Origin: an uncultured Gammaproteobacteria bacterium
GTDB lineage: Bacteria; Patescibacteriota; Patescibacteriia; UBA10025; JAHIVO01
NCBI GenBank assembly: GCA_964415025.1
Contig: CAYPXF010000007.1
Coordinates: 1 to 61,653, forward strand
DNA: 61,653 bases
Direction of reading: 5' to 3'
The notes beneath the pieces are model-generated. The model made no database searches. It was not told where the DNA came from and saw only the letters and a program-made list of their open reading frames with translations. Shown one piece after another: positions 1,967 to 20,449 of this stretch. Position 1 is the first letter of the stretch. Each line of letters begins with the position of its first letter. Made by a program: the position numbers and the translations under genes.

Positions 1967-4072
1967 TCACAGCATGCCTCTCTGATAGAGTATGCGCCTG
2001 GTTTGGGGAGAAATTTTATCCAAATATTTACTGTTAATATCTTCACTATCCTCCCGTAACTGCCGTATATCGGATTTACCTTCTTTAAACTCTGTCATAG
2101 CATTATAATATTCTTCCGTGAGCCGTGCTTCTGGCCGGCTGCTGTGTGGCCCGGTTTTAACACCTAACCTATGAGCTAATTTTACCGCAGCTGTTGTTCC
2201 GTCCCAGTCATCTCCATCCCAAGCCCACATACCGCCTGAATGATTTTCATAACCCATATGTGATATCGTCTCTTTTACTGCAATTTTCTTTATCTCGCTT
2301 CTCAAGGCATTTTGTACTGCTTCTCGTAGTTGCGTCTTTTCAGTCTCGTGTAATACTTTGCTTAAACCAGCATTATCAGTCAATTGATTTACCGCGGCAG
2401 ATATACCTTGTTTTTTACACTGGGCCAAGAAAACTGATTTCCAGTCTGACTCCTTCCATAAATCATTAATTACATCCTTCACTTTATGCGCTAATACATA
2501 TCTTTCATTATAATCTTTATTCAATGTTTCATTATCAAACTGCACCCTATGTCTTATTGCATTCTCTATCGCAGTAATTACATTGCTCTCAATCGAATAC
2601 ATTTTTTCCGGAGATATTTTTTGTTCTAATGATGCCAAATCATCTTGCCCTAACTCATTTTCTTGATATACCACTGATCCGTCTTCATTAATCTGAAAAA
2701 GTTCTCCTGCATCCATTTTACCCGGTTGCACTATATATGTCCCCTCCGGTAATGTAAGGGGGGTGTGAGGATTTTGCTCAAAATAAGTATCAACTGTATT
2801 AATATTTGCAGGCTTGCCATTTGTCTCGATCATTTTATCGAACGGTGATAATGCTACATAAGGCGAATGGTCCCAGTTTCCGTACATATGCGAAGCAACA
2901 TGATGATTCAGCGTAAAATGAATGCTGTTTCTCAATGTCTCCCCCTGGCTCGCGTCATACGTAGACTGCATCCTGTATCCATCGCCGACCTTTTTTGGCT
3001 TAAATTTGGTAGTATGTACGGCCACCAGTTCTTTTGGATCCAGCGCCTCTACAGTTTCGTGTTCCCTCGAACCTTTTTTATTCATGCTGGCCGTTTCATC
3101 AACAATCTCTTTTTGTACTTTTTCGTCGTGCTGCCTTAATAATGTCGCTCTTTTTTCTAACTTCTGACTGGCATCGGCATCACCCTGTAGAGCTAATAAT
3201 AACAAAACTTCACCCTCATAATTACGTTTTGTTCTGAAATTGCCCTCACTATCAAATAGTTTACCGGCTATTACCTTATCCATTAATTGTTTAATTTCCT
3301 TATTTGTTTCGCCTTGAGACAGTACTCTGCGCATTTCCCTAAGCCGCTTATCTTCTACTCCCAAATAAAAAGCCATATCTAATAATGCCTGCGGTGAGCT
3401 TTCTACGAAAAAGGAAGCCTTCCCCTGACTGCGCGGTTCATTTATGTCGACGGGATTACCGGTGGTGGGCGAAATATCCGCTTTTGAACCGTGCCTGATT
3501 GTATCACAAAAATCGTTCCATTCTTGATCTGTCCGCGCTTTGGGCCGATCACCGATTATAAAAGCCTGTCGGCCGTCAACCATTTTATCTGAAAATGGTA
3601 ATTCATCGGGGGAATAAAAAAGAGTTTTTACTTCCTTGCCCCCGATGGTAGTAAAATTGTATATGTCTCTTTCTACCCCTTCCTCATCAATAATTTCATG
3701 AGGTTTTAATTGTTCGAACATCTCCTTGCTTGCAGCCTTCTTTTCTGTGATATTTGAAACTTTTCCTTGGTTAGTCGTGACTAAATCATCAATTTTTTTA
3801 TGTACATCTGACAAGCCTTGCCTAACATCCTTCATCTCATCAGGATCGGCTTCATACTTATGGTGGACGCTGCCGACTTCTTCTAAACCCTGTGCCTTCA
3901 CTGATTCTGCGGTCTTTTTTATTTTTTCAGTAGTCTCTGCTGCGAGATGATCTAATTGCTCCGGTGTTTCTATAGTTTTTTCAGGTGATTCTGGTGGTGT
4001 AGTAAAAAATTCTTCCGTTTTTTCAGGTGATTCTGTATTATTTATTGTTTCTTCTTCCGGATCACGTGCCAT
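1967..4072 (-). CDS. Hypothetical protein, 701 aa, acidic low-complexity N-terminus
   Basis: Long uninterrupted ORF; no family recognised with confidence. Confidence 0.75.
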   Translation of the reverse strand: MARDPEEETINNTESPEKTEEFFTTPPESPEKTIETPEQLDHLAAETTEKIKKTAESVKAQGLEEVGSVHHKYEADPDEMKDVRQGLSDVHKKIDDLVTTNQGKVSNITEKKAASKEMFEQLKPHEIIDEEGVERDIYNFTTIGGKEVKTLFYSPDELPFSDKMVDGRQAFIIGDRPKARTDQEWNDFCDTIRHGSKADISPTTGNPVDINEPRSQGKASFFVESSPQALLDMAFYLGVEDKRLREMRRVLSQGETNKEIKQLMDKVIAGKLFDSEGNFRTKRNYEGEVLLLLALQGDADASQKLEKRATLLRQHDEKVQKEIVDETASMNKKGSREHETVEALDPKELVAVHTTKFKPKKVGDGYRMQSTYDASQGETLRNSIHFTLNHHVASHMYGNWDHSPYVALSPFDKMIETNGKPANINTVDTYFEQNPHTPLTLPEGTYIVQPGKMDAGELFQINEDGSVVYQENELGQDDLASLEQKISPEKMYSIESNVITAIENAIRHRVQFDNETLNKDYNERYVLAHKVKDVINDLWKESDWKSVFLAQCKKQGISAAVNQLTDNAGLSKVLHETEKTQLREAVQNALRSEIKKIAVKETISHMGYENHSGGMWAWDGDDWDGTTAAVKLAHRLGVKTGPHSSRPEARLTEEYYNAMTEFKEGKSDIRQLREDSEDINSKYLDKISPQTRRILYQRGML
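3975..4035. repeat. 19-bp direct repeat (GTTTTTTCAGGTGATTCTG) encoding ESPEKT twice
   Basis: Identical copies at 3975-3993 and 4017-4035, 42-bp period. Confidence 0.85.
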
Positions 4073-4248: not shown

Positions 4249-6147
4249 TTATTTCACTACGACCCCACTATTCCCCAGTGTCCCCCAATTCCAGAGAAAT
4301 GACGACTGGGTAAACGTTTTCTCGCCGGACAGCGGATCCAGCGTGATTATTTTACTCGGATTTTCAGCCGAGCCAATATAGCCGATCACGACGTAGGTGT
4401 GTTCACCGTTGACGGCGACGACGTTATCCCCGTCCGGTGTTTTCCAGTCAATGCGCGAGCCTGATCCGGCCGTACCCCAGACAATGACCGGATGTCCGGC
4501 CTGGATTTCGGCAGTCAGCTGCGGCAGTGACCAGCCGGAAAACCATTCAGCCTCGCGGTAGTGCTGGGCGGCCTGGGCAATCGGCTGCCAATACACGCCA
4601 TAGCCGGTCGATGGCTGGTGGCCGTCGATATCCCCGACAAAAGCAATGTGCGGATTACCCCATACGCCGTCCTGTTTTGGCGTCGAATCAAATCCGATCA
4701 TATTGATAAGCGCTGCTTCAGACACCGAGATGTCATAATACTCCAGCGCCATAACCAGGGTGGCAATCTCACAGCTTAAATTATGCTCCTGACGGTGAAA
4801 TGGAACTGACAGTTTGGTCACGGATAATTCCGTGGCAAAAGAAATCGTCTGTGCCTGTGCCGAAGCCGGACCGTTTGCGCCCTGAATGCCGGCGGCAAGG
4901 GTGATAGTATAGCCGGTATTAAAGCTAAGGTTATCCTGCGGATCAAACACTATGGTCTGACCATCGATCCAGGAAAATGAACCACTGACTGCTGGATTTA
5001 TGGAAAAAGCTTGTTCGGCTGATATTTTATCTACCGGCTGATCAAATAAAATCTCCATGCTGCTGCCGATACTCACTCCAGTAGCGCCATGAGCTGGATA
5101 TGATCTGGTCATCGTAACTGGACCAACAGTCGAAAATTTATAGACGGCATCTTCTATTAGATAACCACCGTTATTTGTTTCCAATCCTGCTGGCAACGTC
5201 ACTGTGTAGGCAGTATCCATGGCCCAGTCATCGGCTGGCTCAAATGTGACGGTTAGATAATCTTGCGTCGACCATTGCCCTTGAATTGCGGGTTCAATCA
5301 CTGCCTGCTCCTGCAAAGAGGCAAATGCAATATTTTCTGAAAATGTAATGAAAAGCGGATCGTCTATAGCTACAGCATCACCGTGTAAACTCACTGACGT
5401 AATTCCCGGTGCTTCGGGTACAGTCCAGCTGCCTTCCCATATAAGCGCTGGCTCTGCCTGGAACCCCAGCTCTTCTGTCCCCCATTTCCACCGTATATGC
5501 TGGCGGGTTACCTTAAGCTGGTAGGTCTGTCCCTGGGACAGGCGTTTGTCTGGTGTAATTCTATATGACGTTGCTTGCTCATCCCACGCAGTGGTAAATC
5601 CAATCTCCGGGCTGATAGAAAAATCATACCGGGCCAATTTGCCCGGAGGATCGCTAAGCATAACGTCCCAGGAAGCTCGCGGCGATATGACAGTGTCTTT
5701 GGCAGGAGAGACACTGGTGACATCAGGTGCGGCTGGCGTGGAAAATACAAACGTATACGTATCAGGCTGGCGATAGGTTGGCAGTGCGCTTTTAACATTT
5801 GTCACAACTACTTCATAGGTTGTATCAGGCCGCCAGGTTAACTCTGGGGTAAAAATAACTTTCCGCGCCAAATGTTCTGACATGATACTGTCGCTGTACC
5901 TAATAGCGCCATACACGTTCGGTGTCACTGAAACTTCTACCTGTCGTGAGACCGGTATGGTGAAGTTAAATTCCAATGGCGCATCAATAGCAAGCACATT
6001 GGAATTGGCGATAGCAAAGCTCGGGCGTGGCGAGATACTGGCTACAATAAAACTAATCAGTGCGGCGATAATAACCACACTGACAATGCTCCAAAAAATA
6101 ATTCTTTTTTTGGTAAAACTTTTTTTCGGATCTGATGATTGAAACAC
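4249..6147 (-). CDS. Surface protein with about four bacterial Ig-like (Big_5/SbsA-like) repeats and a C-terminal C39-like peptidase
   Basis: N-terminal TM; repeated I.FS/F..PV...S and W...T.Y.V/L motifs; RQEHNLSCEIA (Cys), HTYVVIGY (His), LDPL (Asp). Confidence 0.8.
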   Translation of the reverse strand: MFQSSDPKKSFTKKRIIFWSIVSVVIIAALISFIVASISPRPSFAIANSNVLAIDAPLEFNFTIPVSRQVEVSVTPNVYGAIRYSDSIMSEHLARKVIFTPELTWRPDTTYEVVVTNVKSALPTYRQPDTYTFVFSTPAAPDVTSVSPAKDTVISPRASWDVMLSDPPGKLARYDFSISPEIGFTTAWDEQATSYRITPDKRLSQGQTYQLKVTRQHIRWKWGTEELGFQAEPALIWEGSWTVPEAPGITSVSLHGDAVAIDDPLFITFSENIAFASLQEQAVIEPAIQGQWSTQDYLTVTFEPADDWAMDTAYTVTLPAGLETNNGGYLIEDAVYKFSTVGPVTMTRSYPAHGATGVSIGSSMEILFDQPVDKISAEQAFSINPAVSGSFSWIDGQTIVFDPQDNLSFNTGYTITLAAGIQGANGPASAQAQTISFATELSVTKLSVPFHRQEHNLSCEIATLVMALEYYDISVSEAALINMIGFDSTPKQDGVWGNPHIAFVGDIDGHQPSTGYGVYWQPIAQAAQHYREAEWFSGWSLPQLTAEIQAGHPVIVWGTAGSGSRIDWKTPDGDNVVAVNGEHTYVVIGYIGSAENPSKIITLDPLSGEKTFTQSSFLWNWGTLGNSGVVVK

Positions 6148-6638: not shown

Positions 6639-7958
6639 TTAGGAGGATGCACAGATCGTCTCTACTGCATCAGGCTGGCCGTGTACTTTCCAAAAGTCAC
6701 GGAAATGCACTGGACAGCCCAGCAGTTCGCTGCCGCCCTCACGTGGCAGCGCATAAAACGGGTTAATGCGTGCATACAGCCCTTTAGTCTGTATGGCACC
6801 ATCGTGAGTGTAGTAGGTGACATCATACTGTTTACGGACAATCCGCTGGACAACCCAGGGATTAGCCAAACAAGTATCTGATACGGCATCATTGATCAGC
6901 TGTGCCGCGCGCGACTTAGAACACATACCGAGATGCAGCACGCCTTTGCCCCCGGCCCGCAGTCTGGGATCTAGTCCAGCATACTTGAGCGCGAACAACC
7001 GCTGCTTCGTATTGAGAACGGCAATATCAGAAAGGCGAAGATGCGCTACGTCCCCTCGTTCTTGCTCTACGGCAAGCGTACTGTACGGGTCAGCCACATA
7101 GGTTACTGGAAACAACCGCCGTACCGCATCAGAATACAGCATGAACGTACGGGGATGATACGGCAGCATGGTGGCTACCTTATGATCTGTCAGTACGCTT
7201 GGCGGCGGCTCGATTTCGAGTACGCCCTGCTGATACAACTCCAGTAACTTTTGCCAGCCATCATACTGGATTAATTCCTCGAGATAATGCCGGAACACGA
7301 CATCATACGATGCAATATTTTCCGGGATTTCCTGGATACAGATATCGAAGTCAATACCCTGACCCCGGATAGCTTTGGCAAAGTATGCGGCCTCTGCTCC
7401 GTAAAACCGGTATTTGTGCAACAAATGCACTACTCGGGGGCGCTGTTTTCCGGTAAGTGCACGAAGATGGTATGCGACACGCTCTACAAACCGCCGTCCG
7501 ATAACCTGATAACCCCGGTAACAGTCTGCCAGAGCAGCGTGGTATCCCCAGCCAGAACCTGGCGTTTGCGCTTCGACTGCCACGTTGAAGCTCGGCTGGT
7601 CCATACGCATGAACAGTGGAACACGCGGTATCCGGTGCTCGAATAGTTGCCGGTGGATTGTCTTCAATGTTTCAGGCATGCCGGTTTCAAACAAATCGAC
7701 CAGCCATGACCATGCATCATTATTGACCGCATACTGATACAAGCGATTTGTGGTCTGCGCCCATTCTCTGATAGCAGCGCCGCGCCGAATCAGTAATTGG
7801 TGCTGCTGCGCGGAAATAAAGAACGGTTCAGGACTGACCATTGAGGTGAATGTTTTTTCGTCACCAAATCCTACCTGGGCTTGGTCGAGTTGTTGTTTGA
7901 CAGCCAGCGCCTTTGCTTCCAATGTTTGCTGTTCGGTGTTTAGTGTTACAGTCTTCAC
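6639..7958 (-). CDS. Putative ATP-grasp amide ligase (glutathionylspermidine synthase / circularly permuted ATP-grasp-like)
   Basis: R-x-D (FMRMD) followed by E-x-Q-T-P-G-S-G; EPP...DHK, LKYAG...GGKGV and WVVQR motifs; GTG start with strong SD GAAAGGAGGT. Confidence 0.6.
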   Translation of the reverse strand: MKTVTLNTEQQTLEAKALAVKQQLDQAQVGFGDEKTFTSMVSPEPFFISAQQHQLLIRRGAAIREWAQTTNRLYQYAVNNDAWSWLVDLFETGMPETLKTIHRQLFEHRIPRVPLFMRMDQPSFNVAVEAQTPGSGWGYHAALADCYRGYQVIGRRFVERVAYHLRALTGKQRPRVVHLLHKYRFYGAEAAYFAKAIRGQGIDFDICIQEIPENIASYDVVFRHYLEELIQYDGWQKLLELYQQGVLEIEPPPSVLTDHKVATMLPYHPRTFMLYSDAVRRLFPVTYVADPYSTLAVEQERGDVAHLRLSDIAVLNTKQRLFALKYAGLDPRLRAGGKGVLHLGMCSKSRAAQLINDAVSDTCLANPWVVQRIVRKQYDVTYYTHDGAIQTKGLYARINPFYALPREGGSELLGCPVHFRDFWKVHGQPDAVETICASS

Positions 7959-8000
7959 TGCAACCTCCTTTCAATTGATTGTAAAGAGCGGATTAGTAAT

Positions 8001-8894
8001 TCATCTGACTGGGTGGCCAATGCTACCGAGTAACGTCTCGGCTGACACTGGACCAGGCCGGCGTATACGGATCAGCATTCCTGGTTTTGCTAAAACTTTT
8101 TTTTCTGAATACTCCTTTGAAATAATTTTACCAATGCATTGTTCTGCTCTAGTTGTTTCTCCTAATTTCACCACGGGGATAAAAAGGCCACCCTCCGGGG
8201 CACGGATATCGAACCGTTCAATCAGTTGACTGCTTGGGCGCTGCGGCATAGTTTGATTTGGATTAATACAATGCTGAACAACACGATGCAATCCGGTAAT
8301 TCCCGCTTTTAGCTCTGTTTGGGTCAGCACGTCGAGAGGCGGCAGTTCAGCGCCCACGGCCGGCACGCCGGCGGTAATCGCATTATAGAGCAAGGTGCCA
8401 CTAATCATTTTTTTTGTATTATTAGTCAGTGATATACGCCATATCAGCGGCAACCTGTACGCGTTACAAAGCTGTGCTGTTTGTCGCCGTATATTCGAAT
8501 CGCCGGTATCAACAAAAATTGTTTGGCTAATAGCCGGGTCGGTAAAATTATGCAGGTCAATGACCAAATCACTGCGCCTAACAAGTCCCATAATAACCGC
8601 GGCAATGCGTGCTGATGTGCTGTCATTTCCACCCGGGAAAATTCTGTTCAAATTTTTATTATCTACCGGGTTTATTTCCGTATTATTAGCCAATGCTAGC
8701 GGATTACAGCGCGGTAAGATGATAATCTGCCCGTGTGCCAATACTGACGGTGCGCTGATGAATTGTTTGAGGACGAGCTGCTGACTGAATTCATCACCAT
8801 GAATACCAGCTGTCATCAATATACGCGGTCGCCCTGCGCCAATTGTTATACGCGGTAGCTGTACTGAATCAATTGTTATAGTGTCTTGTTTCAT
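8001..8894 (-). CDS. Succinylglutamate desuccinylase/aspartoacylase family (M14-type) metallo-deacylase
   Basis: GIHGDE (HxxE), NLNRIFPG, DLH, GAEL; C-terminal biotinyl/lipoyl-like GGLF..VKLG region. Confidence 0.85.
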   Translation of the reverse strand: MKQDTITIDSVQLPRITIGAGRPRILMTAGIHGDEFSQQLVLKQFISAPSVLAHGQIIILPRCNPLALANNTEINPVDNKNLNRIFPGGNDSTSARIAAVIMGLVRRSDLVIDLHNFTDPAISQTIFVDTGDSNIRRQTAQLCNAYRLPLIWRISLTNNTKKMISGTLLYNAITAGVPAVGAELPPLDVLTQTELKAGITGLHRVVQHCINPNQTMPQRPSSQLIERFDIRAPEGGLFIPVVKLGETTRAEQCIGKIISKEYSEKKVLAKPGMLIRIRRPGPVSAETLLGSIGHPVR

Positions 8895-8915
8895 ACATTA
8901 AATAAATACCCTAAT

Positions 8916-9009
8916 AAACAAAAAACCTCTTATTGAGCAAAGAGGATGTTAGTACTGGGTATTAAATTAAATTATATAATACGCAAACAGCCCCTTTGCC
9001 TAAGAGGTT
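8916..9009 (-). promoter_or_regulatory. Transcription attenuator with alternative hairpins and a U-tract terminator
   Basis: Minus-strand RNA: 1:2 CCUCUU/AAGGGG; 2:3 GCAAAGGGG/CCUCUUUGC; 3:4 CCUCUU/AAGAGG followed by UUUUUUGUUU. Confidence 0.7.
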
Positions 9010-9053
9010 ACAAACCAATGATAACAATACATTTGTGCTTGCGTGTTGTTCAT
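9000..9053 (-). CDS. Putative attenuator leader peptide MNNTQAQMYCYHWFVTS (17 aa)
   Basis: ATG 9 nt after the -10 box; aromatic cluster YCYHWF; stop codon sits inside hairpin 1:2. Confidence 0.6.
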   Translation of the reverse strand: MNNTQAQMYCYHWFVTS

Positions 9054-9062
9054 AGCACCGTA

Positions 9063-9091
9063 AGAATAATATACCCGGTTAGTTATGTCAA
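9063..9091 (-). promoter_or_regulatory. Sigma70-type promoter of the leader peptide operon
   Basis: TTGACA-17 bp-TATTCT; perfect TTATCCACA box just upstream (9099-9107). Confidence 0.7.
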
Positions 9092-9113
9092 AACAATCTG
9101 TGGATAACTACAA

Positions 9114-9455
9114 CTACCGTGCTTTAGTAATCGCATTGGTGATCCAGGATATTACCCATAGAATCACGCCGCCGATCAGGGCGGTGACAAAGCTGTCGAC
9201 CGCAAATCCCTCGATAAATGAAGCAACAAACCAGATGATCAGGGCGTTAATCACCAGCGTGAACAAACCAAGCGTCAGTATGGTAATTGGCAGAGTCAGT
9301 ACGATTAAAATCGGCTTCAGAATAGCGTTCAAAATACCAAGTACCACGGCAACAATCAGCGCGATATAAAACGAACTAACCTCAAATCCCGGCACCAGGT
9401 AAGCTACCATAAGCAGGGCAGCCGCATTGAGTAATAAACGAAGAAGTAAATACAT
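9114..9455 (-). CDS. 4-TM phage holin superfamily IV / YvlD-like membrane protein
   Basis: LNAILKPILIVLTLPITILTLGLFTLVINAL signature. Confidence 0.85.
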   Translation of the reverse strand: MYLLLRLLLNAAALLMVAYLVPGFEVSSFYIALIVAVVLGILNAILKPILIVLTLPITILTLGLFTLVINALIIWFVASFIEGFAVDSFVTALIGGVILWVISWITNAITKAR

Positions 9456-9460
9456 GTGAT

Positions 9461-9570
9461 GAATTCCTAATTACTAATTACTAATTCCTAGTCAAATCCC
9501 AATTTTTTAATGCTTAATTAATAAATTGAATCATTAACAATTTACTAGAAATTAGATATTAGAAATTATT
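9461..9570. repeat. AT-rich heptamer repeats (CTAATTA)n and inverse (TAGAAAT)n
   Basis: ctaatta ctaatta ctaattc at 9467-9487; tagaaat tagatat tagaaat at about 9546-9566. Confidence 0.6.
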
Positions 9571-9583
9571 AATTAATTTTATT

Positions 9584-9658
9584 TACCGCCTACGGGATTC
9601 GAACCCGTGTTACATGGATGAGAACCATGCGTCCTAGGCCGGGCTAGACGAAGGCGGC
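9584..9658 (-). tRNA. tRNA-Glu (anticodon CTC), CCA not encoded
   Basis: Full cloverleaf: acceptor GCCGCCT/AGGCGGT, anticodon arm CATGG-TTCTCAT-CCATG, T arm ACGGG-TTCGAAT-CCCGT. Confidence 0.95.
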
Positions 9659-9666
9659 TTATTAAA

Positions 9667-9735
9667 CGTCCTAGGCCAGGCTACCTGTCCGCCATCGTCT
9701 ACGGCGAAGCCGTGGCAAGCGGAGACATAGGCGGC
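9667..9735 (-). pseudogene. Degenerate 5' fragment (nt 1-29) of tRNA-Glu interrupted by a 40-nt hairpin insert
   Basis: 26/29 nt identical to 9630-9658 once insert 9684-9723 is removed. Confidence 0.75.
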
Positions 9736-9749
9736 CTAAACGTTTCCGT

Positions 9750-9778
9750 ATCATAGCAAATTAAAGACGGTAAATCAA
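9750..9778 (-). promoter_or_regulatory. Promoter for tRNA-Glu (transcript would include the interrupted fragment)
   Basis: TTGATT-17 bp-TATGAT with extended -10 TG. Confidence 0.65.
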
Positions 9779-9826
9779 GCTCGCCTACCCTGGTAAACAC
9801 AGTATCCGGCCCACGACAAAAAACAA

Positions 9827-10006
9827 TTAATGCTTACGGTAAATCTGGAAAAATATCCCGGCGAGGAAGGACAGCATACCTAGCTGCAAATAGAATGAAG
9901 ACGAAATAATAATAAACTCGTTCTGCACCTCGGTGAAAAAGCCGAATATACCGCACATAATACCGAAAACAGCAAATGCTATTGGAACATATTTATTTTT
10001 CAGCAC
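9827..10006 (-). CDS. Small two-TM membrane protein
   Basis: Hydrophobic 59 aa; GTG at 10006 is preceded by SD GAAAGGGGGT (track start 10015 lies within the SD). Confidence 0.6.
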   Translation of the reverse strand: MLKNKYVPIAFAVFGIMCGIFGFFTEVQNEFIIISSSFYLQLGMLSFLAGIFFQIYRKH

Positions 10007-10042
10007 CTTTGTCACCCCCTTTCCGTATAATCGTTGAAATAA

Positions 10043-11053
10043 TTATTTAATCTTATTGCCGACCTTAGCACACAGACGGACTAGCGCTTCAGAATACCCC
10101 CATTCATTATCATACCAGGCAATAACTTTCGCTAAATTTCCACCGACTACTTTTGTTAATTCCAGATCGACGATTGAAGCGTGCGGATTACCGACAATAT
10201 CAGACGATACGATTGGCTCATCAATGCACGTCAAGATGTCCTGGTATTGGTCGGTGGCCGCGGCCTGTTTGAGCGCTTGGTTAATTTGTTCTTCGGTCGC
10301 TTCTTCCTTCAGCACAATAGTAATATCCGAGAGTGACCCAACCGGTATAGGTACCCGGATAGCCATGCCGTCAAACTTACCTTTAAGATCTGGGATAGTG
10401 GTTGTGGTTGCTTTTGCCGCTCCAGTAGTGGTAGGAACCAAGTTTTCAGCCGCTGCCCGCGCCCGTCGCATATCTTTTTTATGGGAATTATCCACGATGT
10501 TTTGACTGCTGGTATAGGCATGAATGGTTGTCAGCATGGCTTTTTCTATACCAAATACGTCATTAATTACATTGACGATCGGGGCAATGCAGTTTGTCGT
10601 GCATGAAGCATTTGACACTATTGGATCATCACCAAGCTCATCATCGTTGACGCCCAGTACGAATGATTGCACCTCTGTCCCCTTTGGCGGAGCAGATAAG
10701 ACGACTCGTTTAGCGCCGGCATCGAGGTGAGCACTGGCTTTTTCTCGGGTACGAAATACGCCGGTTGACTCGATGACTACATCGACTTCAAGCTCTTGCC
10801 ATGGTAAATCCTTTGGTTCGCGCTCCGAATACACACGATATTTTTTGCCATCGACTATAACATGCTCATCATCATAGGTTACCTCATGCTCATACCGGCC
10901 GTACACTGTATCGTATTTGAGTAAATGAGCCAGCATTTTTGTACCGGATAAATTATTGAGCGCCACTACCTCGAACTGGTCACTGGCATGAGCTATCTTG
11001 AATGCCGCCCGGCCAATACGGCCGACACCATTAATTGCAAGTTTGATTGCCAT
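10043..11053 (-). CDS. gap: Type I glyceraldehyde-3-phosphate dehydrogenase
   Basis: INGVGRIGR, ASCTTNC, WYDNEWGYS. Confidence 0.97.
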   Translation of the reverse strand: MAIKLAINGVGRIGRAAFKIAHASDQFEVVALNNLSGTKMLAHLLKYDTVYGRYEHEVTYDDEHVIVDGKKYRVYSEREPKDLPWQELEVDVVIESTGVFRTREKASAHLDAGAKRVVLSAPPKGTEVQSFVLGVNDDELGDDPIVSNASCTTNCIAPIVNVINDVFGIEKAMLTTIHAYTSSQNIVDNSHKKDMRRARAAAENLVPTTTGAAKATTTTIPDLKGKFDGMAIRVPIPVGSLSDITIVLKEEATEEQINQALKQAAATDQYQDILTCIDEPIVSSDIVGNPHASIVDLELTKVVGGNLAKVIAWYDNEWGYSEALVRLCAKVGNKIK

Positions 11054-19048: not shown

Positions 19049-20449
19049 TTATTTTTTATCTTGCAGAGAAATATGGAGCTCGTTGAGCTGCGCTGTACTG
19101 ACCGCTGATGGTGACCCGGTCATTGGTTCGCGGTTGTCTCCAGTTTTTGGAAAAGCGACAACTTCACGAACATTAGCTTCATTAAACAAAACCATAAACA
19201 GCCGATCAATACCCGGGGCAATACCCCCATGCGGGGGAACGCCGTAGGAAAATGCCTCCAGCATGTAACCGAACTGCTGTTGTGCTTCCTGGTCTGGAAT
19301 TCCGATCAGCCGGAATATGTTTCGCTGGATATCAGGATCAGTAATACGGATACTGCCGCCGCCAACTTCAAATCCGTTGAGCACCATGTCGTGTTGCCAT
19401 GACCGGACCGCATGCGGATTAGTGTTAAGTTTGGCAATATCTTCATCTTTTGGTGAGGTAAACATGTGATGCGCCGGCGCCAAGTGGCCATTTTCCTTTT
19501 CCGGCTCAAACAACGGCCAGTCAACAACAAAACAAAAAGCTAACTCGTCTGGATTGTCCTTGTCCTGACGCAAGTCAGGTCGGTCAGTGCCATACGTGTC
19601 CATTGCCTCCTGGTACGTGAGTCGCGGCCAGGGACTGGCGCTGATTTTTTTTTCAGGAAATATTTTTTTCACCAGGCTGGTAAACAAATTTTCTGTCAGT
19701 ACTAATATGTCTGCCTGATTCGCAAAAGAGAGTTCAATATCCAGCTGATAAAATTGGTCGGGCGCGCGGTCAGCCCGGGCGTCCTCGTCACGAAAACACG
19801 GTGCTATCTGGAAATACCGTTCAAAACCAGCCACCATCAGCATTTGCTTATACTGCTGCGGAGACTGGGGTAGGGCATAAAATTTTCCCTGGTGCTGGCG
19901 CGACGGAACCAGATAATCACGCGCCCCCTCTGGGGTTGATTTAGCCAGAATAGGTGTTTCTATCTCATAAAAATCATGGCCGTGCAAATAGTCGCGCATG
20001 AATTTGATGGCCTGGGAACGTTTGATAATTTTTTGCTGGTTTTTCTGCCGGCGCAAGTCTAAATAGCGATATGTATAGCGCAACTCTTCACTGGGTTCTT
20101 CTTTCGCTGTCTCCCCTATTTCAAATGGTGTAGTCTTGGCCGTAGACAGAATAGTAAGCCCCTGTGCCTGCAGCTCGATTGTGCCGGTGGGCAAATCTTT
20201 ATTTACTAATTTTTCCGGACGTTTATTTACTAGTCCAGTAACAGCTACTACGTATTCGCCGCGGAGCGACTTGGCCTGTTCGAGTAATTCCTTATCCGCT
20301 GCTAAAAAAACTACTTGGACCACGCCCGTAATATCACGTATGTCCGCGAAGACCATTTTACCCATACGCCGGGCAGTATGGACCCAGCCGCGGATAGTGA
20401 CTGTTTGCGAAACATGCTGGGGAGTGTCAGTAATGCGAGTATGCTTCAT
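19049..20449 (-). CDS. aspS: Aspartyl-tRNA synthetase (bacterial type, GAD domain absent)
   Basis: STPEGARDYLVPSR, QSPQQYKQMLM, FRDED, PPHGGIAPGIDR. Confidence 0.95.
   Translation of the reverse strand: MKHTRITDTPQHVSQTVTIRGWVHTARRMGKMVFADIRDITGVVQVVFLAADKELLEQAKSLRGEYVVAVTGLVNKRPEKLVNKDLPTGTIELQAQGLTILSTAKTTPFEIGETAKEEPSEELRYTYRYLDLRRQKNQQKIIKRSQAIKFMRDYLHGHDFYEIETPILAKSTPEGARDYLVPSRQHQGKFYALPQSPQQYKQMLMVAGFERYFQIAPCFRDEDARADRAPDQFYQLDIELSFANQADILVLTENLFTSLVKKIFPEKKISASPWPRLTYQEAMDTYGTDRPDLRQDKDNPDELAFCFVVDWPLFEPEKENGHLAPAHHMFTSPKDEDIAKLNTNPHAVRSWQHDMVLNGFEVGGGSIRITDPDIQRNIFRLIGIPDQEAQQQFGYMLEAFSYGVPPHGGIAPGIDRLFMVLFNEANVREVVAFPKTGDNREPMTGSPSAVSTAQLNELHISLQDKK

Follow-up and report, generated by a model that had tools for sequence, protein, structure and literature searches.

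A candidate ribosome-mediated transcription attenuator with a leaderless, aromatic-rich leader ORF upstream of an AstE-like/ligase gene pair in Patescibacteria

The leader region of the AstE-like/ligase operon

This report concerns a short region on the minus strand of contig CAYPXF010000007.1, a stretch of 61,653 nucleotides (hereafter the window) assigned to the Patescibacteriota. Two adjacent genes are found there. The first encodes a zinc deacylase-like protein of the AstE/AspA family (AstE-like), and the second a ligase with the fold of eukaryotic-type glutathione synthetases. The gap that separates the AstE-like gene from the membrane-protein gene upstream holds a promoter-like site, a short open reading frame (sORF) containing a run of aromatic, histidine and cysteine codons, and four segments, numbered 1 to 4, that can pair with one another, the last of which is followed by a run of six uridines (Table 1). 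We consider it likely that these elements make up a ribosome-mediated transcription attenuator controlling the operon.

The TTGACA-17-TATTCT sequence is the top promoter-like site across positions 8000-10200, with 10 of 12 matches. Its -10 hexamer ends 9 nucleotides (nt) upstream of the ATG of the sORF (9053-9051), so that the predicted transcript is leaderless or carries a leader of at most 3 nt. At the other end of the gap, a terminator scanner flags 8945-8926, with the T-run that follows, as an intrinsic terminator, and since only 26 nt lie between the U-run and the AstE-like start codon, there is no space for a separate AstE-like promoter. The motif CCTCTT-N(2-14)-AAGRGG-T4 occurs at a single site in the whole 61.6-kb window, against 0 expected; it is found once in each of the close homologous loci described below, and nowhere else in them. 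A preliminary description of the window had listed the promoter, the sORF, segments 1 to 4, the U6 tract and the complementary AAUACCC and GGGUAUU sequences, and all of these lie on the minus strand at the coordinates it gave.

The aromatic sORF by itself is not significant inside the window, where six sORFs with a run of at least five Phe/Trp/Tyr/His/Cys codons are found versus about 1.5 in shuffled sequences; the other candidates are unlinked to any leader. What gives this leader its significance is its conservation in all homologous loci. A second aromatic sORF, at 19998-20066 on the plus strand (run of at least six), lies antisense within a gene for a 466-aa protein and was dismissed as a chance occurrence.

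Conservation of the leader

Relatives of the 439-aa ligase at 48-59% identity number only six among 5.8 billion clusters; the two whose source is named come from metagenome-assembled genomes of Patescibacteria and Candidatus Kerfeldbacteria, and in the present analysis it is these names alone that suggest an origin of the window in the candidate phyla radiation. One locus (L010) was added through a metagenome scan. With identical copies merged (L005 = L006 = L017; L007 = L008 = L009 = L019), there are eight close loci in five lineages: the window, L001, L002, L003, L004, L005, L007 and L010. One of the merged copies, L017 (CAZJUO010000028.1), bears the title "uncultured Gammaproteobacteria bacterium", which is probably a binning or labelling error; its genes and synteny fit the Patescibacteria loci.

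In every close locus the AstE-like gene lies directly upstream of the ligase gene, and a leader comparable to that of the window precedes the pair in all eight; the preliminary description had named the lack of such leaders in homologous loci as grounds for giving up the attenuator. In the eight loci TTGACA or TTGACT precedes the sORF ATG by 37-38 nt, a constant distance indicating that the leaderless geometry is conserved. Each sORF contains a run of 6-9 consecutive Phe/Trp/Tyr/His/Cys codons ending just upstream of segment 1, and each leader is completed by CCUCUU-type and AAGAGG-type segments, then a U-run. The conservation of aromatic codons in homologues, which had been suggested as a check, is observed at the level of codon identity and not of nucleotides. 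When L002 is compared with L004, all 3 changes in the eight-codon aromatic run are synonymous, whereas the 27 flanking codons have 3 synonymous and 9 non-synonymous ones. That the changes in the run are synonymous only points to selection on codon identity, and hence to an sORF that is presumably read by ribosomes.

These comparisons bear on the view that the hairpin and U-run would be a plain terminator of the upstream membrane-protein gene, the sORF and the alternative pairings being fortuitous. There is indeed no other terminator from the stop codon of that gene, at 9114, to the hairpin, and aromatic sORFs in the window alone are not rare enough for significance. However, the genes upstream of the leader differ or are divergent among the close loci, meaning that the leader travels with the operon: the same leader stands before the AstE-like gene with a PFK gene upstream (L002, L004), a divergent gene (L003) or a TrmB gene (L007). 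In L001, a separate terminator lies upstream of the promoter. Together with the conserved promoter-ATG spacing and the codon-level selection on the run, these comparative data, as far as sequence goes, already contradict the idea of an upstream-gene terminator, to which we give almost no credence.

Mutually exclusive pairings

The minimum free energy fold of 9062-8895 is a long hairpin in which segments 1 and 2 pair with segments 3 and 4 (-44.9 kcal/mol, z = -4.1, equalled by 0 of 200 shuffles), a pairing that the preliminary description had listed as an alternative. The extended 2:3 duplex of the window (-20.8 kcal/mol; none of 1000 shuffles is as good) is built on the 9-bp core GCAAAGGGG:CCUCUUUGC. 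Helix 2:3 is the strongest in all eight leaders, with 11-20 bp, energies of -16.4 to -25.2 kcal/mol and p <= 0.005 versus shuffles, and its extensions differ in sequence by lineage. Helix 3:4 is a canonical short hairpin adjoining the U-run (-6.9 to -11.9 kcal/mol in the eight loci). As segment 3 is common to the two helices, they form a mutually exclusive antiterminator and terminator in all eight loci. In the free RNA, segment 1 forms 8 bp with segment 4 or pairs weakly with segment 2; the 1:4 pairing extends 2:3 into the long hairpin, whose base abuts the U-run. The folding model suggests that this long hairpin (2:3 plus 1:4) is probably the default terminator. Helices 2:3 and 3:4 and the long hairpin thus stand as first described, while helix 1:2 is weak and is probably not the main anti-antiterminator. 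The sORF stop codon of the five short leaders lies at most 2 nt inside the segment 2 core or 3 nt ahead of it.

A MAFFT alignment of these five short leaders was structurally inconsistent, with weak RNAalifold covariation counts, and the RNAalifold consensus on the plain alignment is 1:2 + 3:4. The helices were judged instead by per-locus duplex energies against shuffles, with anchored cores. Covariation, another of the checks suggested at the outset, is seen in part: the extensions vary by lineage with pairing kept, whereas the core segments are nearly invariant. In L002 and L003, CCUCUUC is found a third time, in sORF codons 10-12 ahead of the aromatic run; in free-RNA folds this copy can pair with segment 4, a complication for the simple model in that lineage.

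Two accessory helices were also detected. In helix P0, codons 4-6 of the sORF pair with nucleotides shortly after segment 2 (-12.6 kcal/mol, p = 0.017 in the window). Equivalents are found in L001 and L005 (p = 0.02) and, with other sequences, in L002-L004 (p ~0.02 in L002); in L007 and L010 the equivalent is not significant in duplex energy against shuffles. The other is an outer stem around the terminator, absent in L002-L004, whose complementarity is kept with differing sequences in five short-ORF lineages (window, L001, L005, L007, L010; individual p values of 0.012-0.13). It may affect how the AstE-like mRNA is processed or translated, or how stable it is.

One could take this outer stem (8963-8953 with 8916-8905) as a sign that control is mainly post-transcriptional, the stem and the other leader structures setting AstE-like translation initiation or mRNA stability. 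In the five leaders that have it, the stem ends 8-15 nt upstream of the start codon, and mycobacterial leaderless sORFs are known to act via sequestration of the ribosome-binding site (bioRxiv 10.1101/834739). However, there is no Shine-Dalgarno sequence inside the right arm, and the stem is missing in three loci while the canonical hairpin and U-run are present in every one. As the main mode of control we find this very improbable; a post-transcriptional layer could well be additional to attenuation rather than an alternative to it.

Predicted effect of a stalled ribosome

In a partition-function scan, the footprint of a ribosome was masked codon by codon and the probability (P) that segment 4 is paired was computed. 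A terminator forms in the free RNA and also when a ribosome occupies the stop codon; in the latter case it is, in the short leaders, the 3:4 hairpin. Segment 4 becomes unpaired (P < 0.15) at only 1-3 A-site codons per leader, with one such codon in L002. In the window, P falls from 1.00 to 0.04 with W13 in the A site and to 0.05 with F14, or to 0.02 and 0.01, respectively, when the entire 5' side is masked. The simulation therefore upholds the earlier proposal that stalling at these aromatic codons would give read-through, and it finds aromatic or His equivalents in the other loci (Table 1). The sensitive codons stay aromatic or His for 3' footprint edges from A+11 to A+15, with two marginal exceptions, V15 of the window at A+11 and D12 of L005 at A+15.

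We propose the following mechanism. Transcription from the sigma-70-type promoter would produce a leaderless RNA starting at, or no more than about 3 nt from, the AUG of the 17-codon leader ORF. In RNA that is untranslated or freed by the ribosome, helices 2:3 and 1:4 would form the long hairpin abutting the U6 tract, and transcription would terminate near 8920. A ribosome that reaches the stop codon would hide segment 2, so that the short 3:4 hairpin would form and again cause termination. When charged tRNA-Trp or tRNA-Phe is scarce, the ribosome would stall when W13 or F14 enters the A site, hiding segment 1 and leaving segment 2 exposed. Helix 2:3 would then form alone, segment 4 would be left without a partner, and RNA polymerase would read through into the genes of the AstE-like deacylase and the glutathione-synthetase-fold ligase. 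The leader would thus have two terminator conformations (2:3 + 1:4, and 3:4) and one antiterminator (2:3 alone). Each of the predictions of such an attenuator that can be tested on sequences agrees with what the loci contain, which supports this interpretation at that level.

Several points weigh against it. The predicted sensitive window takes in only 2-3 of the 6-9 aromatic codons, which leaves the simple model without an account of the conserved Tyr-Cys codons upstream. If the shortest footprint (A+9) is assumed, V15 takes over in the window, T15 joins F14 in L007 and L010, and the sensitive stretch of L001 extends to S16. For L002-L004, where the sORFs extend 36 nt beyond segment 2, the prediction of read-through requires that the RNA on the 5' side of the ribosome be masked too. 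Helix 1:2 has energies of only -3.4 to -6.7 kcal/mol, and since the CCUCUU/AAGAGG core is nearly invariant, classical covariation is limited to the helix extensions and accessory helices. It would also be odd for starvation to induce a ligase that might consume the amino acid. Finally, to our knowledge, neither intrinsic termination nor transcription-translation coupling has been studied in Patescibacteria.

Tryptophan-related devices in distant homologues

In relatives with 31-32% identity, the ligase and AstE-like genes are still paired, mostly in reversed order, and several of these loci carry regulatory elements that can be recognized as tryptophan-specific (Table 1). Some are preceded by an sORF with Trp codons, tandem in most cases, and a terminator/antiterminator; the 5' arm of the antiterminator shares sequence with the end of the sORF in L012 and L022. 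L013 carries a T-box leader whose specifier loop reads GAA-UGG-A. A conserved purine follows the specifier codon of T-boxes (PMC7583486), and the L013 loop fits this rule with Trp as the specifier. This T-box lies on a short metagenomic contig, and no paper on Patescibacteria T-boxes was found. Other loci have a gene of the Trp-repressor family adjoining the operon, or operator-like palindromes. In several independent distant loci a tRNA-Trp gene lies between the two genes or directly behind them, which suggests that it is co-regulated with the enzymes. Taken together, the leaders with tandem Trp codons, the Trp T-box, the TrpR-like repressors and the tRNA-Trp genes provide independent support for amino-acid-responsive control of this operon family.

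The window and the close loci contain no TrpR-like gene and no full TrpR-type GTACTAGTAC palindrome, L005 having only the shorter core TACTAGTA at 7465. There is no tRNA-Trp gene in the window either; the tRNA at 9584-9658 is a tRNA-Glu.

Some further observations were made in the distant loci. In L013, the tRNA-Trp position (about 2132-2205) is occupied by a sequence resembling a tRNA, in which the anticodon loop is enlarged and includes CCACCAA. It is called by neither ARAGORN nor Rfam and may be a degenerate or unusual tRNA. In L023 (4812-6380), a serine-recombinase gene abuts the tRNA-Trp gene, which raises the possibility of an integration hotspot. L024 (2810-5628) contains the most distant relative of the ligase, at 26% identity. 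A PCMT-type methyltransferase gene flanks it on either side, an AstE-like gene is lacking, and its function is probably different. This locus was left out of the evidence.

The distant loci help to evaluate two other explanations of the sORF. In the first, the sORF would encode a functional small peptide (a precursor akin to ribosomally synthesized and post-translationally modified peptides, or RiPPs, a substrate of the ligase, or an aromatic micropeptide), and the hairpin and U-run would be a constitutive partial terminator setting the peptide:enzyme ratio. The peptide gene does lie immediately upstream of genes for a ligase and a peptidase-like hydrolase, a Y-C-(W/Y/F) motif is found in 6 of the 8 peptides, and most of the aromatic codons fall outside the predicted sensor window. 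But the peptides of homologous operons have only aromatic or Trp codons in common, with variable termini and lengths of 16-35 aa, and no precursor or leader family of NCBIfam matches any of them. Upstream of the L013 ligase gene, a T-box takes the place of the leader, with no leader sORF noticed; the enzymes of that locus probably do not need a peptide, which argues strongly against a RiPP precursor. Moreover, the ligase is predicted to have the small-molecule glutathione-synthetase fold and not that of the RimK/microviridin-type (MdnC) ATP-grasp enzymes of known RiPPs, and the window peptide lacks the Asp, Glu and Lys residues needed for graspetide cross-links. A RiPP would also leave unaccounted for the exclusivity of 2:3 and 3:4 and the location of the stop codon at segments 1 and 2. 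The RiPP-like precursor that the preliminary description had offered as its alternative is therefore disfavoured by the unrelated peptides, the L013 T-box and the fold of the ligase, and we regard a functional peptide as unlikely.

In the second explanation, the leader would sense by nascent-peptide arrest, as TnaC does, and stalling would be caused by the aromatic-rich chain, perhaps together with free Trp or Phe bound in the exit tunnel; free amino acid would be read, not tRNA charging. The aromatic-rich chain and the conserved Trp recall TnaC in general terms, and the structural switch is indifferent to the cause of stalling over segment 1. Against this, the peptides have no conserved arrest motif (W12, D16, P24), L007 and L010 being without any Trp or Cys, and the leader terminator is intrinsic, not Rho-dependent. 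The L013 T-box senses uncharged tRNA and would turn the genes on under starvation, which is the direction of classical attenuation, and the WW leaders of distant loci resemble classical trpL. We find arrest of this kind decidedly unlikely, and favour stalling at hungry codons.

Table 1. Features of the window, of the leader peptides in the close loci and of the distant homologous loci. Sensitive codons are A-site codons at which a masked ribosome leaves segment 4 unpaired; P, probability that segment 4 is paired
Feature	Locus	Position, strand	Sequence or remark	Basis
Intergenic gap, 219 nt	Window	between 9455-9114 and 8894-8001, minus	between PF04020 membrane-protein gene and AstE/AspA-family gene	
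-35 hexamer	Window	9091-9086, minus	TTGACA	Promoter scan
-10 hexamer	Window	9068-9063, minus	TATTCT, 17-nt spacer	Promoter scan
Leader sORF	Window	9053-9000, minus	MNNTQAQMYCYHWFVTS, 17 codons + TAG	ORF reading; homologous sORFs in all close loci
Aromatic/His/Cys run, six codons	Window	9029-9012, minus	Y9 C10 Y11 H12 W13 F14	
Predicted sensor (sensitive) codons	Window	9017-9015 and 9014-9012, minus	W13 and F14	Ribosome-mask folding
Segment 1	Window	9009-9002, minus	(AA)CCUCUU = AACCUCUU; overlaps codons T16-S17-stop	
Segment 2	Window	8999-8991, minus	GCAAAGGGG; begins 1 nt past sORF stop codon	
Segment 3	Window	8945-8937, minus	CCUCUUUGC	
Segment 4 and U6 tract	Window	8931-8926 and 8925-8920, minus	AAGAGG and U6; 3' half of terminator	
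Helix P0, 5' arm	Window	9044-9036, minus	ACGCAAGCA; sORF codons 4-6	Pairs with 8989-8981
Helix P0, 3' arm	Window	8989-8981, minus	UGUUUGCGU	
Outer stem, left arm	Window	8963-8953, minus	AAUACCCAGUA; within 2:3 loop; includes AAUACCC (8963-8957)	
Outer stem, right arm	Window	8916-8905, minus	UAUUAGGGUAUU; 10 nt upstream of AstE-like start codon; includes GGGUAUU (8911-8905)	
AstE/AspA-family zinc deacylase-like gene (first gene)	Window	8894-8001, minus	297 aa	Pfam PF24827, 8.6e-20
Ligase gene (second gene)	Window	7958-6639, minus	439 aa; eukaryotic-type glutathione-synthetase fold	Predicted structure
Leader peptide	L001		MNSKQLQMNHYCWFFSFTR; sensitive W13, F14	
Leader peptide	L002		MNNTFPQLKNLFHYCWHFYFSSVEEVYLRSGKIMV; sensitive F18, partly H17 (P 0.33)	
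Leader peptide	L003		MNTTFPQLKNLFHYCWHFYFSSVGEVSLRSGKIMV; sensitive F18, partly H17 and Y19 (P 0.30-0.39)	
Leader peptide	L004		MNNTFPQLKNFRHYCWHFYFSPGEEVSLRVRKSMA; sensitive as in L003	
Leader peptide	L005		MQLRQTHFYCFDWYFSS; sensitive W13, Y14	
Leader peptide	L007		MKTIQTNSYYYFFFTS; sensitive F12, F13	
Leader peptide	L010		MKNFHTNNNYYFFFTSY; sensitive F12, F13	
Trp-codon sORF + terminator/antiterminator	L011/L014		MENNLKMNISMKSWWGANTYVFASIF; tandem WW	
Trp-codon sORF + terminator/antiterminator	L012/L015		MNLFKTYWWQLILSPYR; tandem WW	
Trp-codon sORF + terminator/antiterminator	L020		MKQIQCWWGTKAIARVPLC; tandem WW	
Trp-codon sORF + terminator/antiterminator	L022		..CKIWRAWFNFKLSPV; two separated Trp codons	
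T-box leader	L013	460-758		RF00230, 100.7 bits vs gathering score 93
Trp-repressor-family gene adjoining operon	L011, L012, L021, L022			PF01371
Operator-like palindromes	L011, L012 (two copies), L020, L021		TGTACTAGTACA-type	
tRNA-Trp(CCA) gene between/just after the two genes	L011	2058-2132		
tRNA-Trp(CCA) gene between/just after the two genes	L012	2744-2818		
tRNA-Trp(CCA) gene between/just after the two genes	L014	1471-1545		
tRNA-Trp(CCA) gene between/just after the two genes	L020	1660-1735		
tRNA-Trp(CCA) gene between/just after the two genes	L022	4829-4903		
tRNA-Trp(CCA) gene between/just after the two genes	L023	4801-4877		
TrpB-like pyridoxal-phosphate enzyme gene, upstream	L023	1-1094	1.4 kb from the pair	NF009057, 654 bits

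The two enzymes and their neighbourhood

The AstE-like protein carries the HxxE zinc motif as GIHGDE, and its relatives in the PDB are 2qj8 and 3cdx (AstE/AspA proteins from structural genomics) and the deacetylase DoeB. For the ligase, no match was found in Pfam or NCBIfam, and a sequence search of the PDB was also empty. An earlier AlphaFold2 model based on a 7-sequence alignment was poor (pLDDT 56) and was replaced by one based on 37 sequences (pLDDT 92, pTM 0.91). The top Foldseek match of the latter is human glutathione synthetase, over its full length (TM 0.67, E 2e-14), followed by E. coli YgiC/YjfC and glutathionylspermidine synthetase. These matches identify the protein as a circularly permuted ATP-grasp carboxylate-amine ligase. 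The family comprises about 333 representatives at 50% clustering (E <= 0.001).

The operon might serve the salvage or handling of Trp or aromatic amino acids, for instance by forming and hydrolysing an N-acyl or peptide-like aromatic conjugate. This suggestion, weaker than that of the attenuator, comes from regulatory and genomic associations only (tRNA-Trp, TrpR, T-box, TrpB-like), and the label "non-biosynthetic" that the preliminary description had attached to the genes is unproven. Going one step further, and only tentatively, the pair, often with an embedded tRNA-Trp gene, could be an unrecognised module for Trp or aromatic amino-acid acquisition or salvage in auxotrophic Patescibacteria, governed by at least three interchangeable sensors (TrpR-like proteins, a Trp T-box and leader peptides). 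In the lineage of the window, the sensor would have widened its range from Trp to include Phe as well, and elsewhere to include Tyr/His, within a leaderless attenuator having two terminator conformations and one antiterminator. Should this view be correct, it would be the first documented case of ribosome-coupled transcription attenuation in the candidate phyla radiation.

Past the ligase stop codon, a GC-rich hairpin of about 60 nt (6632-6573, minus strand) is found, without a clear U-run. Beyond it come a promoter-like TTGACG...TATACT sequence and a gene for a 77-aa two-helix membrane protein (6477-6244, minus), which is kept downstream in L001 and L005 (46-73% identity), not in L003. Nearby minus-strand genes at 1970-4072, 4249-6147 and 1112-1921 encode a 701-aa protein with no Pfam or NCBIfam match and two Peptidase_C39_2-like proteins, one of them with Big_5 domains; L001 and L005 have a similar C39_2/Big_5 gene in synteny. 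In L002, a gene for a reverse transcriptase (RVT_1; 878-1864) is located some 4 kb upstream of the leader.

Relation to known leaders and significance

A cmscan of 7500-10500 against Rfam (E <= 10) detected no leader or riboswitch family and no T-box; a PyrR match (21.9 bits versus a gathering score of 54) and matches to miRNA models were set aside as chance. The term "TrpL-like" used in the preliminary description is thus appropriate as a mechanistic analogy but not as a statement of homology.

Among classical systems, pheL is the leader of pheA and pheM that of pheST; the latter is a case of leader control of non-biosynthetic genes, encoding an aminoacyl-tRNA synthetase. The present leader resembles trpL, pheL and pheM in having a short ORF whose regulatory aromatic codons immediately precede segment 1, helices 2:3 and 3:4 that exclude each other, and a hairpin and U-run ahead of the structural genes, and in a predicted default termination that would be lifted by a ribosome stalled at hungry codons. 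It differs from them by the absence of sequence or structure homology, by an sORF that is predicted to be leaderless and not led by a Shine-Dalgarno sequence, by mixed codons (Trp and Phe, with Tyr, Cys and His upstream) where theirs are for a single amino acid, and by its target, an uncharacterised ligase/deacylase pair in Patescibacteria. In the trp scheme 1:2 is the anti-antiterminator, whereas here 2:3 is the most stable helix and segment 1 would act as a co-terminator. TnaC, the leader of the tryptophanase operon, senses free Trp via a conserved arrest peptide and blocks Rho. The likeness to tnaC is that of a Trp-related leader peptide over non-biosynthetic genes; unlike it, the window leader has no conserved arrest motif, its terminator is intrinsic, and its predicted response is to starvation.

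The Trp T-box (RF00230), which controls the homologous operon of L013, would give the same output, a choice between terminator and antiterminator that is on when tRNA-Trp is uncharged, but it senses the tRNA directly by RNA, with neither ribosome nor sORF. The mycobacterial polycysteine leaderless sORFs sense Cys, unmask a ribosome-binding site and act on translation (Canestrari et al., bioRxiv 10.1101/834739). They share with the window a leaderless sORF at the 5' end of the operon, in which stalling in a run of codons of one class remodels the RNA and raises expression under limitation. The differences are the canonical intrinsic terminator and the aromatic codons of the window leader, and the phylum.

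The mechanism is thus a known one and the variant is new: leaderless, in a poorly understood phylum and upstream of an uncharacterised enzyme pair. Full-text literature searches returned no paper joining Patescibacteria or the candidate phyla radiation with leader-peptide attenuation, transcription attenuation or T-box riboswitches, and none tying the AstE-like/ligase pair to tryptophan. A leaderless start, mixed aromatic codons and a segment 1 that serves as co-terminator would widen the design space of attenuators, and could aid automated searches for leaders. The regulation also gives two uncharacterised enzyme families a physiological context, limitation for Trp or aromatic amino acids, from which testable hypotheses on their substrates follow. 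How genes are regulated in the candidate phyla radiation has hardly been explored. A conserved attenuator would show that bacteria of this kind, reduced and for the most part unculturable, read the charging of their tRNAs by coupling transcription to translation.

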